Positions 4,381 to 55,273 of a stretch of DNA of 60,948 nt are shown here, one piece after another (within the stretch, counting starts at the first letter, position 1; every line of letters begins with the position of its first letter). Where the stretch lies: the NCBI GenBank assembly GCA_011065065.1, contig JAAKFL010000001.1:1-60948 (forward strand), written 5' to 3'. A model generated the notes under the pieces. The model saw only the letters and a list, made by a program, of their open reading frames with translations, made no database searches and was not told where the DNA came from. The stretch is from Chlamydiota bacterium. Lineage in GTDB: Bacteria > Chlamydiota > Chlamydiia > Chlamydiales > SLFE01. Made by a program: the position numbers and the translations under genes.

Positions 4381-5705
4381 TGACTCTTACAGATGTTCAA
4401 CCACAACTACTTGAGAATTGGAGTTCTTTACCAAAAGAGGAACAGTCTCAACTGACTCAACAAATTCGTGCCATTGATCTTGAGATTTTCAAGAAATTAC
4501 AAGACGCTCTTCATGAAGAGAAAAAACTTCACGAAGACTACGCACCGCTTAAAAAATATCTCACTTCTGGTTCAGACGAGAACACTCAAGTGGGAAAAGA
4601 TTTGATTGCTCAGGGAAAAGTAGGCTGTATCATTATGGCAGGGGGGATGGGAACTCGACTGCATTTTGAGGGTTCAAAAGGGATGTTTCCGATCACTCAA
4701 TTTCGTCAAAAATCTCTTTTCCAGTACTTCTCAGATCGTATTCGTGCTGCCAGCAAGATGTATCAAAAAGATCTTCCTGTTACGATCATGACATCTTCTT
4801 TGAATGACAAACAAACTCGAAAATTCTTCAAAGATCACGAATATTTTGGTTTAAATCCCGAACAACTTTCTTTTTATGTTCAAGGGGACCTTCCCTTTCT
4901 TGATCAACAAGGAAATTTATTTTTCGATTCTCAAGCTCACATTGCAGAGGGACCTGATGGGAATGGCGAGTTGCTTCACCATTTTTATCATTCAGGTTTG
5001 TGGAAACGTTGGAAAGAGCAGGGAGTTGAATATGTGAATATTATTCTCATCGATAACCCACTAGCAGATCCCTTTGATCCAGAATTAGTCGGGACGCACA
5101 AGCAAGAACAATGTGACATATTAGTGAAGGGAATCAAAAGAGAAGACCCGAAAGAAAAACTTGGAGTTCTCGTGCGAATTCATGACAAAGTTCACATTGT
5201 CGAGTACTCTGAACTTCCTGAAAAAGATATGGAAGCAACACTTTCGAATGGTGATCTTAAGTTTCCCTGTGGAAACCTCAGTCTCTTTTCAGTCAAAATG
5301 GATTTTTTTGAAAAAATCAAAAGCACTGATTTACCTCTCCATAAAGCTTTTAAAGCTCTTTCCTATTTGGATGTGAATGGAAAAAGGGTGAAACCAACAG
5401 AACCAAATGCTTGGAAATTTGAAAAGTTTATCTTTGACATCTTTCCTCATGGAACCGTCGAAGTGATGGTGTATCCGAGGGAGGAGTGTTTTTCTCCGTT
5501 GAAAAGAAGGGAAGGGGCAGATAGCCCAGAAACTGTGATGAGGGATTTACAGGAATTTGATCGAAGGACTTATCACGCGATCAGTGGGCTGGAGCCCCCC
5601 TCTCGTCCTTTTGAATTAGATCCTCAATTTTATTATCCTACAGAAGATATGCGCAAGAAGTGGGAGGGGAAGGCATTGCCAGAGGGTGATTACATCCTTC
5701 CGTAA
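4380..5705 (+). CDS. UDP-sugar / UDP-N-acetylglucosamine pyrophosphorylase, eukaryotic UDPGP type
   Basis: AGGMGTRL nucleotide-binding motif and overall UDPGP-family layout (441 aa). Confidence 0.8.
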   Translation: MTLTDVQPQLLENWSSLPKEEQSQLTQQIRAIDLEIFKKLQDALHEEKKLHEDYAPLKKYLTSGSDENTQVGKDLIAQGKVGCIIMAGGMGTRLHFEGSKGMFPITQFRQKSLFQYFSDRIRAASKMYQKDLPVTIMTSSLNDKQTRKFFKDHEYFGLNPEQLSFYVQGDLPFLDQQGNLFFDSQAHIAEGPDGNGELLHHFYHSGLWKRWKEQGVEYVNIILIDNPLADPFDPELVGTHKQEQCDILVKGIKREDPKEKLGVLVRIHDKVHIVEYSELPEKDMEATLSNGDLKFPCGNLSLFSVKMDFFEKIKSTDLPLHKAFKALSYLDVNGKRVKPTEPNAWKFEKFIFDIFPHGTVEVMVYPREECFSPLKRREGADSPETVMRDLQEFDRRTYHAISGLEPPSRPFELDPQFYYPTEDMRKKWEGKALPEGDYILP

Positions 5706-5830
5706 TTTTAACGCAAAGATGCAAAAGTCGCAAAGACGCAAAGAGTTTTCAAGTGTTATTTGGACCAACGGTCCATGCGCTTTTTAGACGCAGATAGCAC
5801 AGATGAGTGCAGATGGATTAAACATTCACC
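5706..5830 (+). repeat. composite repeat: TTTTAAC-GCAAAGA module + TGGACC-N3-GGTCCA palindrome + GCAGAT module
   Basis: Begins directly after the stop codon. It is the inverted partner of 7187-7327. Confidence 0.8.
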
Positions 5831-6149: not shown

Positions 6150-7178
6150 ATGGACATTCAATCACCTTCATCTGGATTTTTTGAACTAATACCTCACGAA
6201 GTAACCGTATCCATTTTTCAAAATCTTGACCCTTCTTACCGAGGCACACTTTCCTGTGTTTGCAAAGTCTGGAACGAAATTGTGAATAATCAGTCCTTAT
6301 GCCGGAATTGGAAAAAGAACTATATGGTTCAAGGTGAAGGAATCTGCTGTAAGGTCGAAGATTATACGGGATTGGTTCATATCGAGGTAGGTAGGAAAGA
6401 TAGTAGTGTATCTAATACTTGGGTTTATGGTAGAGGATATAACCTATTTGAACGGGTTCCCGTTTTGAAAGTGAAAATTGGATCTCACGTTTTGTGCTCC
6501 GATCGAAAACATGCATTACCATCTGATGGTATTACCACAGAAGGTAGTGAATTCGTTTATTACAGATATAGTGATAGTTTGCGGTTCAAATTAATAGCTC
6601 CTCAAACTATTGAAATTTATTCACATGATACTTTTGACGATCAGGAATCCAGGGTTTATGTGGATACATCTGCGGATTATCGTTATTTGGTGCATAAAAC
6701 ATTAGACCTTTTCCCAATTAATGTTGAAGAGGGAATTTCTTACTTTGTCTGCGACTTTATTCCAAGGGAAATTTCCGAAAGTGAAGCTCAGGAGAGATTT
6801 GACGTTTTTGTGGCGGATGTTTCTTTATCTGAATACCGGTGTATTTATAACCGTTTTGGCCTAGTTGTGGAAAATATTGGTGAAAAAGGGTATCAAATGT
6901 TTTTATCACGGCCCAGTGATGAATCCTTTGAAGAAATTAAAATCGATCCCAAATTTTTGCCCTATTCAAAAGAAAGTATACGTCATATTACTACGAAGAA
7001 TGTGACGTTTTCAGGGTTAGATTATGGTTATTATGAAGGAGGTTCTTTTAAATTAATTGTTGTCAATTATGCGTCTGAAGAGAGTGATAAGGAGATTATA
7101 GTTCACTTAGAAGGAGAGGAAGCGACAACCCTTGTGCAAACCAAAGGATTTACAGTTCCCTATCGTATCATAAAATGA
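6150..7178 (+). CDS. F-box domain protein
   Basis: aa 13-54, LIPHEVTVSIFQNLDPSYRGTLSCVCKVWNEIVNNQSLCRNW, fits the F-box consensus (LPxE..I...L....L..L..VCK.W..L). The C-terminal 290 aa are unassigned. Confidence 0.85.
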   Translation: MDIQSPSSGFFELIPHEVTVSIFQNLDPSYRGTLSCVCKVWNEIVNNQSLCRNWKKNYMVQGEGICCKVEDYTGLVHIEVGRKDSSVSNTWVYGRGYNLFERVPVLKVKIGSHVLCSDRKHALPSDGITTEGSEFVYYRYSDSLRFKLIAPQTIEIYSHDTFDDQESRVYVDTSADYRYLVHKTLDLFPINVEEGISYFVCDFIPREISESEAQERFDVFVADVSLSEYRCIYNRFGLVVENIGEKGYQMFLSRPSDESFEEIKIDPKFLPYSKESIRHITTKNVTFSGLDYGYYEGGSFKLIVVNYASEESDKEIIVHLEGEEATTLVQTKGFTVPYRIIK

Positions 7179-7186
7179 TCGCGAGG

Positions 7187-7327
7187 TTTTAGACGCAGAT
7201 GGATTGAGTCTTCATGAAGGTTCAATCCATCTGCGCTCATCTGTGTTATCTGCATCTAAAAAGCGTATGGACTGTTGGTCCAAATAACCCTTTGCGTCTT
7301 TGCGACTTTTGCATCTTTGCGTTAAAA
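7187..7327 (-). repeat. composite repeat: GCAGAT hairpin + TGGAC-N5-GTCCA palindrome + GCAAAGA module, reverse orientation
   Basis: Its reverse complement aligns to 5706-5817 over about 100 nt with about 5 substitutions and one 10-nt indel (hand alignment). Confidence 0.8.
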
Positions 7328-7337
7328 GTTCAAAAGT

Positions 7338-9540: not shown

Positions 9541-9686
9541 TTTGTACAATTTTTGAACTCATCTTCCGAGAGAAGCTTCCTCCAGCTGGATAAATTTCTC
9601 AGGAAGGGTAAAAAATACCCTTCCTTCGAAATTTATTACGCTGGAGATTGCTTCTCTCTGGAATATTCGGTCAAAAATTGTACAAA
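9541..9686. repeat. 146-nt imperfect palindrome in the aspC/rpoD divergent intergenic region
   Basis: The termini tttgtacaatttttga (9541-9556) and tcaaaaattgtacaaa (9671-9686) are exact reverse complements. Interior blocks gagagaagc, ctccagc, ataaatttc and aggaagggta also pair. Confidence 0.75.
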
Positions 9687-11612: not shown

Positions 11613-11681
11613 CCGTGATTAAGCGATCATAAGTCGATCCATATTATTAATATTGATCGACTTATGATCGCTTAATCACGG
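11613..11681 (+). terminator. 27-bp perfect inverted repeat: candidate rpoD terminator and/or dinG leader structure
   Basis: ccgtgattaagcgatcataagtcgatc, a 15-nt AT loop, then gatcgacttatgatcgcttaatcacgg, followed by aggttttctcttt. The 3' arm abuts the GGAGG upstream of the dinG TTG start. Confidence 0.4.
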
Positions 11682-25176: not shown

Positions 25177-25317
25177 AGCCGCAGATTCACACAGATTTTC
25201 GCAGTTAGATTAACGCAAAGATGATTGAGCAAGTCAGGCACGGACAACTTTGCTCCTTAGCGTCTTTGCCCCTTTGTGTTAATCTATCTGCGGCAATCTG
25301 CGTTCATCTGCGGCTAA
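25177..25317. repeat. composite imperfect palindrome: GCAGAT x3 + TTAAC + GCAAAG modules on each arm
   Basis: The left arm agccgcagattcacacagattttcgcagttagattaacgcaaag aligns with the reverse complement of the right arm, agccgcagatgaacgcagattgccgcagatagattaacacaaag. Confidence 0.75.
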
Positions 25318-25429: not shown

Positions 25430-27070
25430 ATGCAAGAAGATTACGAAGAGTTTTCACCGCAAGAAATCAAACTTCTAGAAAACTATGTGACCAATACATC
25501 AAGCCACATATTCTGCCTCCGCAACCTGCCAGAGGTGATTAAAGGGGCTCTATTCTCTCGTTATTCCCGCTCCTCTCTTGGTTTGCGAGCCCTTCTTCTT
25601 AAAGAATTTATACTCAATGAAGAAGAAGCGTCATTTGGGAGCATTGTCCCGACATCTGTTGATGAAACTGCGGAAAATCAGATGTTAGCATTGAAGAAGG
25701 CGCAAAGTTTTTATGATCGGATTCTCGATGGTTATGGGGATGATTCCATCGGAGAGTTGGGCGGAGCTCATGTGGCGATTGAAAATGTGTCAATGTTAGC
25801 AGCAAAGTTGATTGAAGATCGCCGTATCGGCGGATCGCCGTTAGAAAAGTCGACGCGTTACATTTACTTTGATCAGAAAGTGAACGGCGAGTACCTGTTT
25901 TATCGCGAACCAATTTTGATGACGTCAGCCTACCGCGATGCCTATGTTGACACTTGCAATATGCTTTTTGAAACTTACAGCAAATTGATTCCTCCGTTAA
26001 CAGACTTGATGGAAGCCAAGTTCCCTAAAGGAGACTCGATTTCAACAGGAGCTTACAAAGCGTCGATTCGTGCGAAAGTGTTAGATTGTCTTCGTGGATT
26101 GCTTCCTGCGGGCACCCTGACCAATATGGGAATCTATGGAAACGGTCGATTTTTCGAACACATGATTCAACGACTTCATTGCAATAATCTGGCTGAATTA
26201 CAAGACATCGGAAAACGTTGTCATCAAGAGCTTGGAAAAGTGATCCCTTCGTTCGTCCGTCGTTCACATACTGAACATCGGAACCAAGTCGGTTTTGCCA
26301 AATTCCAAGAGGCTATGGGATCATCCATTAAATTGATTACTGAGCACAATACGGGATTTAAAGAACGAACAACTGAGCCTGGAGTTCGTCTCATTTCATT
26401 TGATCCTGATTCCCCTTCAAAAGTGGCAGCGGGATTATTGTTTGAACATTCTGATAAAGGTTTGCATGAATTGCGGGAATATTGTCGCAATCTGCCTAAA
26501 GAAGAAATTGCGAGCATTTTGGATGCGGGCTGTATGGCGCGTGAGAACAGACGTCACAAAAGTCCTCGGGCGTTGGAACATGCGGAATTTACATTTGAGA
26601 TCATTGCGGACTTTGGTGCCTATCGCGATTTGCATCGTCATCGTATTCTGACACAAGAAAGACAACTTCTCACTTGTGATTACGGTTTTTATATTCCGTC
26701 CGAGCTTGATGAAATGTCTGAGAAGGGAGCTTATATTGAAGCTATGGAACGGGCGAAAAAAGTTTACGACACCATTGCCGAGGAGTTGCCGGAAGAAGCG
26801 CAATACATCGTGCCGATGGCGTACAACATTCGTTGGTACTTCCATGTGAACCTTCGGGCTCTTCAATGGATTTGCGAATTGCGTTCAGCAGCTGCAGGGC
26901 ATCCGACATATCGCCTGATTGCGCAAGAGATGGCGAGACAGGTCTCTGAAGCCATTCCTGAATTTGAGCGGTTCTTCAAGTTTGTCGATTATGAAGGATA
27001 TGATTTGGGAAGGTTGGGGCAAGAGCAAAGAAAAGCTGAAAAAGCTAAGAGGGTGTCTCAAAAGTTATGA
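25430..27070 (+). CDS. thyX: FAD-dependent thymidylate synthase, long tandem-domain form
   Basis: ThyX-type RHR motif (YRDLHRHRILTQERQ) in the second half. The 546-aa length matches the long chlamydial ThyX form as I recall it. Confidence 0.7.
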   Translation: MQEDYEEFSPQEIKLLENYVTNTSSHIFCLRNLPEVIKGALFSRYSRSSLGLRALLLKEFILNEEEASFGSIVPTSVDETAENQMLALKKAQSFYDRILDGYGDDSIGELGGAHVAIENVSMLAAKLIEDRRIGGSPLEKSTRYIYFDQKVNGEYLFYREPILMTSAYRDAYVDTCNMLFETYSKLIPPLTDLMEAKFPKGDSISTGAYKASIRAKVLDCLRGLLPAGTLTNMGIYGNGRFFEHMIQRLHCNNLAELQDIGKRCHQELGKVIPSFVRRSHTEHRNQVGFAKFQEAMGSSIKLITEHNTGFKERTTEPGVRLISFDPDSPSKVAAGLLFEHSDKGLHELREYCRNLPKEEIASILDAGCMARENRRHKSPRALEHAEFTFEIIADFGAYRDLHRHRILTQERQLLTCDYGFYIPSELDEMSEKGAYIEAMERAKKVYDTIAEELPEEAQYIVPMAYNIRWYFHVNLRALQWICELRSAAAGHPTYRLIAQEMARQVSEAIPEFERFFKFVDYEGYDLGRLGQEQRKAEKAKRVSQKL

Positions 27071-27133
27071 TTTGGATGATTTATGTGGTCAATTGGCCAC
27101 ATAAAGCATCCAAATCATTACTTTCGAGACACC
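27051..27133. repeat. 83-nt near-perfect palindrome overlapping the thyX stop codon
   Basis: gggtgtctcaaaagttatgatttggatgatttatgtggtcaat versus the reverse complement of the right arm, gggtgtctcgaaagtaatgatttggatgctttatgtggccaat: 4 mismatches in 43. Confidence 0.75.
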
Positions 27134-27212
27134 CTCTAAACTCCGTCAATAATTTTCTTGGTTCAAAACTCACTTAACCTCTATTGTTTTAGAAAAATGG
27201 AGGTTAAGAGTT

Positions 27213-44544: not shown

Positions 44545-44566
44545 TTAGTGGCCCGTGCGTTTTTTG

Positions 44567-44793
44567 GCCGCAGATGAACGCTGATGATCGCGGATGGAAT
44601 TTTAACGCAAAGATGCAAAGTCGCAAGTCACTTATTATAAACCATTTAAAAAAAACATCCTGTCCATCCTTACTATCCTTTTATCCTGTTACCCTGTGCT
44701 AAAAAAACAGGATAAAAGGATAGTAAGGATGGACAGGATGTGGTTATTTCCCGATAGGGGTCCTGAAAGGACTGGCTCGCTTTGCGTTAAAAA
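44567..44793. repeat. composite repeat: GCAGAT module + TTTTAAC-GCAAAG module + nested ATCCTG hairpin + reverse GCAAAG terminus
   Basis: The ATCCTG arms at 44656-44690 and 44706-44740 are near-perfect reverse complements. The outer pair is ttttaacgcaaag (44600) and ctttgcgttaaaa (44780). Confidence 0.75.
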
Positions 44794-52758: not shown

Positions 52759-53550
52759 ATGGTTTCTATTTTGATATATTTGGGGATCGGAGCTCTAGGG
52801 GGAATCCTGGCGGGGCTCTTGGGGCTGGGTGGTGGTTTAATCGTAGTTCCGTGCCTGGCGTTTACCTTCGCAAAACTGGGGTTTCCTTCTGATATTCTGA
52901 TGCATTTCGCCATTGGTTCCTCCCTTGCCGCGATGATCACCACCACCTTTTTCTCCACTTGGGCGCATCATCGGATGGGGACGGAAATCCTGCCGATTTA
53001 TAAATTGATGGCGGGAGGAATCATCATAGGCTCATTTTTAGGAGCTCTTACAGCTGATTTTGTCCACTCCGTGATTCTCAGCGTGGCCTTTGGAGGCTTT
53101 GCTTTGATTTTTTCCTTTCAATATTTTTTGAATATCGAGTGGCAACGACGTTCATCTGAACCCAACAATCGTCTGACTATGGGCTGTTCGGTGGTGATTG
53201 GGATGATTTCCGCTTTGTTGGGAATTGGAGCTGGCACAGTAGGTCTTCCCTTTTTGACCTCGTATGAGAAAGCTCCCTTGCATCAAGCGGTGGGGATTGC
53301 TGCTGCGTTATCATTCACCGTCTCCATATTTGGAACGATCAGTTATCTCTTCACAGGATTGAACGAACCTGTGACACCTCCGTTCAGTACGGGGTATATT
53401 TATTGGCCGGCAGTTTTGGGAATCAGTTTAGGCAGTCCGCTTTTTGCATGGGGATCGGCAAGGGTAGCGCATATGTTACCAGTTTTGGCGTTGAAACGGA
53501 TTTTTGCTGTAGTGCTGTTTGTGATTGGAATTCGGATGCTCTTTTTTTAA
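52759..53550 (+). CDS. TauE/SafE-family (DUF81) anion exporter
   Basis: GLLGLGGGLIVVP motif, repeated as LLGIGAGTVGLP in the second half. Confidence 0.8.
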   Translation: MVSILIYLGIGALGGILAGLLGLGGGLIVVPCLAFTFAKLGFPSDILMHFAIGSSLAAMITTTFFSTWAHHRMGTEILPIYKLMAGGIIIGSFLGALTADFVHSVILSVAFGGFALIFSFQYFLNIEWQRRSSEPNNRLTMGCSVVIGMISALLGIGAGTVGLPFLTSYEKAPLHQAVGIAAALSFTVSIFGTISYLFTGLNEPVTPPFSTGYIYWPAVLGISLGSPLFAWGSARVAHMLPVLALKRIFAVVLFVIGIRMLFF

Positions 53551-53820
53551 CCGCGGATGAAATTTTAACGCAAAGGGGCAAAGACACAAAGACACAAAGA
53601 CGCAAAGATTTGTGCTTGTGCATTATGATCACGAAGTGATCTCGAACTTTTAGACGCAGATGTCGCAAATGAACGCAGATTTTTTTAACTTGAAAAAGTT
53701 AAAAAAATCTGCGTTCATTTGCGACATCTGCGTCTAAAAAGCGCATGGACCGTTGGTCCAAGTCAGGCGAACTCTTTCTTTGCGTCTTTGTGTCTTTGCT
53801 TCTTTGCGGTTAAATTTTTT
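53551..53820. repeat. 270-bp nested composite palindrome (GCAAAG arms outside, perfect GCAGAT hairpin inside)
   Basis: The inner stem 53648-53691 / 53696-53739 is 44 bp with no mismatch and a GAAA loop. The outer arms are at 53563-53608 and 53775-53820. A TGGACC-N3-GGTCCA palindrome lies at 53746-53760. Confidence 0.9.
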
Positions 53821-54362
53821 AAGACGATTTTACAAAAATATTCGTGAATCCCAGAATCATCCGTTAACTCAGGATGAAACGTCGCCCCTAAAAAACACCC
53901 CTGCTGCACCAAGACAGGCTCACCGTTCATCTCCCCCAACACATTCACGTCCTCTCCCACAGATTGAATCCGTGGTGCGCGAATAAAAATCCCCGGATAT
54001 TTCCGCTTTCTCCTTGAAGGAAATTTGATGTCTAATGAACATCGGCAAGATTCAATTTGCCGTCCATACCCATTTCGCTTCACAGTAATGTCTAAGCAAT
54101 TCTGCGCCATTAGAATCAAACCGGCACACGTTCCAAAAACTGGCTTAGCAGCCATAAATTCTTTTAAAGGTTCTTCGAAATCGGTAAAAGTGATTTGTTT
54201 TTGAATGGTTGTGGATTCTCCACCAGGAATAACCAACGCGTCACATCTTTCAAGATCTTGGGGCTGACGCACCTCAAAGGTGGCCACACCCAGTCGTTGC
54301 AACATTTCGATATGCTTGGTAAATCCGCCTTGCAAGGCAAGAACTCCGATCACACACTTCAT
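53763..54362 (-). CDS. pdxT: pyridoxal 5'-phosphate synthase glutaminase subunit
   Basis: GVLALQGG, the catalytic CAG context FGTCAGLIL, and FHPELT. The last ~15 codons run into the repeat element. Confidence 0.9.
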   Translation of the reverse strand: MKCVIGVLALQGGFTKHIEMLQRLGVATFEVRQPQDLERCDALVIPGGESTTIQKQITFTDFEEPLKEFMAAKPVFGTCAGLILMAQNCLDITVKRNGYGRQIESCRCSLDIKFPSRRKRKYPGIFIRAPRIQSVGEDVNVLGEMNGEPVLVQQGCFLGATFHPELTDDSGIHEYFCKIVLKNLTAKKQRHKDAKKEFA

Positions 54363-54367
54363 CAACC

Positions 54368-55273
54368 TTACCAACCTCGATTCGCTAAAAGCTCTTCTTT
54401 CTTCAAGTTCTCAATAATGATCCCTTTCATCGCTTCCTTCAGCCCCATGGATACTTTGGCCAGCATCTCAGGATCTTTGAAATGACTGACAGCTGAGACC
54501 ATCATTTTAGCTCTTTTCGCTGGATCATTGGATTTGAATATTCCTGATCCCACAAAGACACTTTCAGCTCCAAGGTGCATCATGAGTGCTGCGTCGGCCG
54601 GCGTTGCCACCCCGCCTGCGGCAAATAGGGGAACGGGGAGTTTCCCATTTTCCGCTACATGTTGCAGTAGCTCGTAGGAAGCTCCAAGCCTTTTCGCTTC
54701 AGCAAAGAGCTCTGCATGGTCCATCGTGGTGACGGATTTGATTTGGCGCATGATTGTTCGCATATGGCGTACCGCTTCGACAATGTTACCTGTTCCTGCT
54801 TCGCCTTTGCTGCGCAGCATGGCGGCGCCTTCCGAGATCCGACGTAAGGCCTCACCTAAATCCTTGCATCCGCATACAAAAGGGATGTTGAATGAATGTT
54901 TTTCGATGTGATTTTCTTCGTCGGCAGGAGTCAACACTTCGCTTTCATCAATGAAGTCGACAAACAGCGCTTCTAAGATATCTGCTTCAGTGAAATGGCC
55001 TATCCGGCATTTCGCCATCACAGGAATGGAGACCTCTTTTTGGATCTCTTGGATAATTTCAGGGTTCGACATACGGGCGACTCCCCCTTCTGCACGAATA
55101 TCAGAAGGAATTTTCTCCAGCGCCATGACTGCAACGGCACCCGCGTCTTCTGCAATCCGCGCTTGTTCCGCGTTTGTTACATCCATGATCACTCCGCCCT
55201 TCAGCATTTCTGCCAGGCCAACCTTCACTTCAAAAGATCCTTTTTGGGGGAGATGTTTTTCTTCTTTGCTCAT
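54368..55273 (-). CDS. pdxS: pyridoxal 5'-phosphate synthase lyase subunit
   Basis: [14 protein letters not shown] and the downstream PdxS/SNZ blocks. ATG at 55273 preceded by GGAG. Confidence 0.95.

Follow-up and report, generated by a model that had tools for sequence, protein, structure and literature searches.

A dispersed family of nested palindromes in a Chlamydiota genome keeps its central hairpins perfect, possibly by arm-to-arm copying

REPINs, which are composed of inverted REP units and form hairpins with compensatory changes (Bertels & Rainey 2011, PMC3116915), share this trait with the repeat family reported here. Both are dispersed, mostly extragenic and non-coding, both combine two inverted units into a long hairpin, and both persist as a population within a genome. 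However, REPINs are mobilised by RAYT transposases, whereas none of the three Y1_Tnp genes in the genome studied here is flanked by the family. The two also have no sequence relation, and the present family is distinguished by arms made of tandem 8-9-nt units, a nested four-helix design, and stems that are strictly perfect, with no mismatch or wobble.

Bacterial MITEs such as Correia, ERIC, and the Rickettsia palindromic elements are small, multi-copy sequences with terminal inverted repeats, which are often co-transcribed with neighbouring genes and can fuse to the ends of ORFs. The family described here is likewise short, non-coding, dispersed, and multi-copy, with terminal inverted repeats (88-94% complementary at the locus under study, perfect over 40 bp in the outer arms of the copy on contig C35). 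The likeness extends, by description rather than by sequence comparison, to the 19 codons and the stop codon that the element supplies to pdxT. Unlike MITEs, the candidate gene-bearing relative encodes no known transposase but a PD-(D/E)XK nuclease.

A mutational process provides another point of comparison. In quasipalindrome correction (Ripley model), template switching turns imperfect inverted repeats (quasipalindromes) into perfect ones (PMC7202029), and inter-strand template switching inverts the spacer (PMC13100816). The model predicts perfect repeats, mirrored changes, and, for its inter-strand version, inversion of the spacer, a pattern that matches the one observed here. The cases known so far are individual mutational events and inverted repeats in yeast promoters. 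To our knowledge, it has not been described as a steady state that keeps a whole repeat family perfect, and it leaves the other, imperfect hairpin families of this genome unexplained.

Finally, the element resembles a provisional class of tandem-unit palindromes associated with GxxExxY genes, with which it shares an A/T-rich terminus followed by three to five tandem 8-9-nt units in inverted arms, in several flavours. In this layout, the outer arms consist of TTTTAAC and GCAAAGAC units and the central arms of TTTTAGAC and CGCAGATG units. The class includes gene-bearing and gene-less versions, as shown for the CGCGAAGAT flavour (contig C2) and for the GCAAAGAC flavour (genome G016). Unlike the other palindromes of the class, the element has a second flavour (CGCAGATG) nested inside it, which forms a perfect hairpin flanked by mini-hairpins of its own, A and B. 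No published description of an association between GxxExxY genes and palindromes was found in the literature searched.

The locus in question occupies positions 53551-53820 of the window, by which we mean the whole 60,948-nt stretch of DNA analysed. An inverted-repeat search identified two 44-nt arms (53648-53691 and 53696-53739), 100% complementary and separated by a 4-nt GAAA spacer, which bears out the mismatch-free 44-bp stem and GAAA loop reported in a preliminary description of this DNA; the chance expectation for the 26-nt arm core is 0.00 occurrences in the window. The outer inverted pair that the same description saw around the hairpin is also present, built of GCAAAGAC-type 8-nt units, and is imperfect: arms 53560-53600 and 53777-53817 are 88% complementary, and an alternative register (53578-53608 and 53777-53807), shifted by one 8-nt unit, yields 94%. 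This register is ambiguous because the arms are tandem 8-mers. The RNA fold energy, which the preliminary description had suggested computing, is -147.9 kcal/mol for 53551-53820 (z = -17.7 vs shuffles) and -71.1 kcal/mol for the 92-nt hairpin alone. The features of the locus, its flanking genes, and two further family fragments of the window are listed below.

5704-5825, minus strand: half copy (nhmmer), with the right central arm, module B, and the outer arm
7167-7330, plus strand: decayed copy (nhmmer), with a left arm lacking two units and three mismatches in the remaining stem
52759-53550, plus strand: TauE/SafE-family gene (Pfam PF01925, E = 6e-46), with its stop codon 1 nt before the composite
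53560-53608, plus strand: left outer arm, with AAATTTTAAC as its A/T-rich terminus and then five 8-nt units of the GCAAAGAC type
53627-53647, plus strand: module A, consisting of mini-hairpin GATCAC-GAA-GTGATC and TCGAAC; family members share it, with compensatory variants in its stem
53648-53691, plus strand: left arm of the central stem, with TTTTAGAC, three ~9-nt CGCAGATG-type units, and an A/T-rich tip
53692-53695, plus strand: loop GAAA, variable across the family
53696-53739, plus strand: right arm of the central stem, reverse-complementary to the left arm without exception
53740-53762, plus strand: module B, AGCGCA plus mini-hairpin TGGACC-GTT-GGTCCA
53763-54374, minus strand: pdxT (SNO glutamine amidotransferase) ORF (PF01174), with the Pfam domain ending at about residue 184
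53777-53820, plus strand: right outer arm, with GTCTTTGC-type units and the GGTTAAATTT terminus; its minus strand encodes the C-terminal tail of PdxT

The composite had initially been placed between the TauE-family gene and pdxT. This is correct on the TauE side, where the gene ends at 53550, but not on the pdxT side, where the ORF terminates within the element: it crosses the right outer arm, and its last ~19 residues (LKNLTAKKQRHKDAKKEFA) as well as the TGA at 53763-53765 are element sequence. In seven relatives, from all of which the element is absent, PdxT ends 4-15 residues past the HxYF motif; the element has therefore either taken the place of the original 3' end of pdxT or lengthened it, most likely by insertion at that end. 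The closest PdxT in relatives is only 56-57% identical and lies in a different synteny, with no orthologous copy or empty site recognised, and a PdxT-based scan of genome contigs for related loci returned only distant phyla. Family copies reshape gene 3' ends repeatedly, beyond pdxT, and 17 of the 20 assessable gene ends neighbouring family copies are 3' ends. The TAA of the TTTTAAC terminus acts as the stop codon next to other copies (e.g., C169:4461-4463). Neighbouring ORFs that terminate within the element or at its terminus were also seen at C169:4454-4704 and C148:1-232.

The host genome is a 1.9-Mb MAG (G000; 221 contigs, 41.7% GC, ~80% complete) derived from a short-read metagenome assembly. 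A search with the core sequence allowing 4 mismatches found four further loci in this genome, and a profile census with nhmmer identified at least 13 copies whose central hairpin is complete along with many decayed, partial, or outer-arm-only versions, the copies lying on different contigs and in both orientations. A unique, recently formed palindrome is thus rejected, and the option of recent formation raised in the preliminary description is not supported, since the locus holds one copy of a dispersed family. Family elements measure ~215-260 bp and have a common layout. Their left half runs from a TTTTAAC terminus through three to five GCAAAGAC-type units and a linker to module A (GATCAC-GAA-GTGATC-TCGAAC), the centre comprises TTTTAGAC, roughly three 9-mers of the CGCAGATG type, and a variable tip with a 0-7-nt loop, and the right half continues from module B (AGCGCA-TGGACC-GTT-GGTCCA) through a linker to the mirrored outer arm. 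When the nine full copies having both outer arms were folded, all nine formed an outer stem around hairpin A, the central hairpin, and hairpin B, i.e., a four-way junction (-131 to -176 kcal/mol). Across the family, the base of the central stem is conserved, as are hairpins A and B on either side of it; the distal part of the central stem is variable, and the stem of mini-hairpin A shows compensatory variants among copies.

Four family fragments lie elsewhere in the window (5704-5825, 7167-7330, 25229-25282, and 44549-44596). The decayed copies are deletion derivatives, and one asymmetric copy has mismatches. Two copies, C187:9111-9388 and C143:2716-2901, lie within additional palindromic shells (ACGGCAGTGG...CCACTGCCGT and GCGGATTTTTTTTT...AAAAAAAAATCCGC, respectively), which suggests insertion into the centres of older palindromes. 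Beyond this genome, a BLAST search of 30 relatives with the composite matched only outer-arm units, and a pattern search for modules A and B across 400 sampled genomes of the phylum found none outside G000. A search for target-site duplications met flanks that are A/T-rich and self-palindromic (AAATTT), in which direct and inverted repeats are indistinguishable; no clear duplication was found at the family copies, nor an empty site in the close relatives examined, and it is from their dispersion that we infer that the elements are mobile. Our best reading of the element is a lineage-specific, non-coding, dispersed nested-palindrome repeat of ~250 bp, MITE- or REPIN-like and tied to the GxxExxY-associated tandem-unit class.

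The most distinctive property of the family is the state of its central stems. All 13 are perfect, at 33-47 bp each and 541 bp in total with 0 mismatches, while between copies the arms show a mean divergence of 30%, with variation in 32 of 42 alignment columns. In a 10-copy alignment, 20 of the 33 stem pairs have changed in both arms and none in a single arm, each of the 330 cells is a Watson-Crick pair without wobble, and no measure is matched by any of 500 shuffles. Several of the stem-pair swaps are transversions (AU<->UA, GC<->CG), and indels at the tip are mirrored between the arms. Divergence of the arms is correlated with that of the flanking scaffold (Mantel r = 0.45, p = 0.02; both average ~0.30), indicating that the stem is inherited with its copy and is not obviously slower-evolving. 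Active maintenance, another option considered at the outset, is supported: the arms of 13 copies have stayed perfect despite ~30% divergence, i.e., through concerted, mirrored change. The loops behave differently from the modules around them. In both pairs of near-identical copies (C35/C53 and C140/C47, the sole such pairs, with unrelated flanks), the 4-nt loop is reverse-complemented while the orientation of modules A and B is unchanged, and across the family the loop reads GAAA, ATTC/GAAT, ATAA, TGAG/CTCA, TTTC, AAAA, AGAA, T, ATGAATA, or is missing. Given this variation and flipping, a role for the GNRA-type tetraloop noted in the preliminary description is not supported. Taken together, these patterns suggest that one arm is recurrently copied from the other.

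Perfect pairing might instead reflect selection on structure, with mismatched copies being purged, whether the structure works at the RNA level, in bidirectional termination, 3'-end stabilisation, or RNase III processing, or at the DNA level as a cruciform. The strong bias of family copies to 3' ends and convergent genes would fit such a role, but is also expected for any tolerated insertion. Similarly, the fold is extremely stable, mini-hairpin A has compensatory variants, and module B, followed by TTTTT on the minus strand, i.e., the pdxT strand, obtains a terminator-like, marginal score; the central stem, however, leads into AAAAAGCG on the plus strand and, on the minus strand, into AAAAGTTC, without the T-run of an intrinsic terminator. 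Selection on RNA also tolerates G-U pairs, yet 0 of the 330 cells are wobble or one-sided, several swaps are transversions that lack a viable intermediate, and neither the sequence nor the orientation of the loop is conserved. An Rfam search returned only generic miRNA-precursor hairpin matches, all below the gathering threshold, so that no known RNA family was matched. Overall, we consider selection on structure an improbable explanation for the perfect stems.

Comparison with other hairpins of the genome showed that perfection is specific to the family. When short-loop hairpins with arms of 28 bp or longer were compared, all 13 of the family proved perfect but only 5 of 58 others (Fisher p = 1.5e-10). 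Other long short-loop hairpin families have 0.03-0.16 mismatches per bp, and a 24-copy CCCGGGATT...ATATT family has 0.057 mismatches per bp at 19% divergence between copies. Arm mismatches amount to 4-6% in other tandem-unit flavours, the family's own GCAAAGAC outer arms included, and 3 mismatches occur in a CGCAGATG hairpin that stands alone at C25:4620-4692, lacking modules A and B. Generic homogenisation of hairpins in an SbcCD-less genome is thus insufficient: because other families and flavours are imperfect, generic template switching is not the whole story, and a family-specific factor is needed. This extra factor could be the position of the stem at the apex of a ~250-nt palindrome, or the stem base and the A and B hairpins serving as cis sites for an enzyme.

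The same comparison bears on the quality of the assembly. The source is a short-read metagenome assembly, in which de Bruijn bubble-popping or hairpin chimeras could have faked perfect arms or flipped loops, and a k=31 Logan contig ends inside the left outer arm, at the edge of the element, a break that is expected because the element is a repeat. Against such an artefact, the 13 perfect copies differ from one another, and dozens of other hairpins in the assembly keep 1-9 mismatches. Moreover, a second public assembly (ENA ERZ23486227 scaffold_1415, 51,205 bp, vs our 60,948-bp contig) is identical over 3,600 nt, entire element included, and the 92-nt hairpin is shorter than a typical read and has unique, asymmetric flanks. 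We therefore regard an assembly origin of the perfect stems as highly improbable.

Genome-wide, 334 perfect inverted-repeat pairs were counted (arms of at least 18 bp, spacers of up to 300 nt, 1.9 Mb). Perfect arms of 64-77 bp with spacers of 95-230 nt occur in other families at C192:104-458, C98:364-739, C220:6559-6826, and C10:1580-1802. Within the window, other long hairpins are located at 44655-44741, 11613-11681, 27048-27137, and 9568-9658; these four include an ATCCTG-unit palindrome with perfect 36-bp arms, a copy of the CCCG..GATT...ATATTA family with 1 mismatch, and two hairpins with 43-45-bp arms and 4-8 mismatches.

Long perfect palindromes are a textbook case of instability in bacteria. 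SbcD was not found in the genome or in any of six genomes of the same taxonomic family, including a 99%-complete congener, and scored above the cut-off in only 3 of 30 relatives. For SbcC, the genome yielded only a sub-threshold ATPase match; ExoI was not found, and ExoVII and MutS are present. The preliminary description had listed the absence of palindrome removal as an option and advised a check for sbcCD, and the results agree with it. We propose that these palindromes are tolerated and persist because the lineage lacks SbcCD, and that recurrent re-copying of one arm from the other would keep the central stem perfect. The likeliest route would be replication template switching at the apex of the palindrome, and switching between strands would also invert the loop. 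Template switching offers the best explanation for the data, as substitutions and indels that mirror each other, an alignment free of one-sided states, and inverted loops all match its products; we infer the copying mechanism itself from this match.

The genome encodes four PDDEXK_3 (GxxExxY) genes. Every visible flank of these genes consists of a terminus and tandem-unit arms of other flavours, and the gene on contig C2 is bracketed by TTTTAACC and CGCGAAGAT units (TTTTAACCGCGAAGATCGCGAAGAC ... gene ... ATCTTCGCGATCTTCGCGGTTAAAA). In G016, a genome of the same order and a different family, 38-nt GCAAAGAC-type arms (92% complementary) bracket a 139-aa ORF matching PF13366 (PDDEXK_3, 1.3e-37), and gene-less GCAAAGAC-armed versions with a 137-nt interior adjoin the gene-bearing one. 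The outer shell of the element therefore falls within a class in which a small PD-(D/E)XK nuclease is carried elsewhere. The element is most likely a gene-less derivative or a passenger of this GxxExxY-bracketing class, with a putative role for the nuclease. Positions 1327-2923 of locus L033 (G016:C5:33490-36526) form a tandem array in which gene-less (137-nt interior) and gene-bearing GCAAAGAC-armed units alternate; there, the arm itself provides the coding sequence for the first 17 residues of the PDDEXK_3 ORF, and a second copy of the gene is truncated.

We also looked for the central flavour in a gene-bearing form. No PDDEXK_3 gene bracketed by CGCAGATG units was found on 11 foreign metagenome contigs, the metagenome scan returned gene-less, imperfect palindromes in unrelated high-GC organisms and two chance coding matches, and a scan of viral contigs gave 0 matches. 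The CGCAGATG/CGCGGAT-unit palindromes on the foreign contigs belong to unrelated high-GC organisms and have clearly imperfect arms, sometimes with another flavour inside, which indicates that the nesting of flavours recurs across phyla. At L070:5455-5640 and L072:519-660, both on high-GC foreign metagenome contigs, CGCAGATG-unit palindromes enclose CACGGAGA or CACAGAGA units. Other potential partners were considered as well. The three Y1_Tnp genes found in this ~80% complete genome (C176, C183, and C187) have unrelated GC-rich repeats as flanks that do not match the family, and a RAYT partner was rejected on this basis. Two near-identical Y1-transposase (RAYT/IS200-like) genes at C187:5930-6259 and C183:8837-9166 have their own GC-rich REP-like hairpins (GGGGCTAACCAC...CCCCCTACCGGGG) and look like a separate REP/RAYT-type system. 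The 23S-IVS four-helix-bundle protein, sought as another candidate partner, is absent from the genome.

A further explanation is that the central stems are born perfect. An enzyme specific to the element, whether the GxxExxY nuclease, a Y1 transposase, or another partner, would nick the conserved stem base between AAC and TTTTAGAC. Whenever the element is mobilised or processed, the second arm would then be made anew on the first by hairpin-primed fold-back synthesis, much like the terminal resolution of rolling-hairpin 'flip/flop' systems. Such a process would account for perfection being family-specific (13/13 vs 5/58, p = 1.5e-10), for loops that flip, and for a stem base and hairpins A and B that are conserved while the distal stem varies. 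The single-strand fold is also suggestive, as four-way junctions are typical substrates of PD-(D/E)XK resolvases. That the sole stand-alone CGCAGATG hairpin without A and B has 3 mismatches points the same way, although this correlation between A/B and perfection has n = 1. On the other hand, the PDDEXK_3 and Y1_Tnp genes of the genome are flanked by other repeat types, with no cognate gene found, and modules A and B occur in no other of the 400 phylum genomes, so that no gene-bearing version is known. We also know of no case of this mechanism for bacterial chromosomal repeats. Birth or re-birth of perfect stems through such an enzyme is unlikely, though we treat it as a serious rival to template switching, and we are quite doubtful of the claim that the central hairpins are substrates of a dedicated enzyme, perhaps the GxxExxY PD-(D/E)XK nuclease acting on the four-way-junction fold, with a stem-base nick and fold-back resynthesis of an arm.

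We favour, with a confidence modestly above even, the reading of these elements as a repeat family whose arms are copied by template switching in an SbcCD-less host, and which is a derivative or passenger of the GxxExxY class. If upheld, the family would provide a natural system for measuring arm-to-arm hairpin copying, whether by template switching or by an element-encoded activity. If the central hairpins were instead enzyme substrates, they would represent a bacterial chromosomal analogue of rolling-hairpin 'flip/flop' and define a new way in which palindromic mobile DNA is propagated or maintained. The link to PDDEXK_3 / GxxExxY would, if it holds, connect one class of palindromic repeats with a nuclease family that is large and uncharacterised. 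For environmental chlamydiae, these elements rewrite gene 3' ends, as with the tail and stop codon of pdxT, and break short-read assemblies, while a whole family of long perfect palindromes persists with ~30% drift, zero arm mismatches, and flipping loops.
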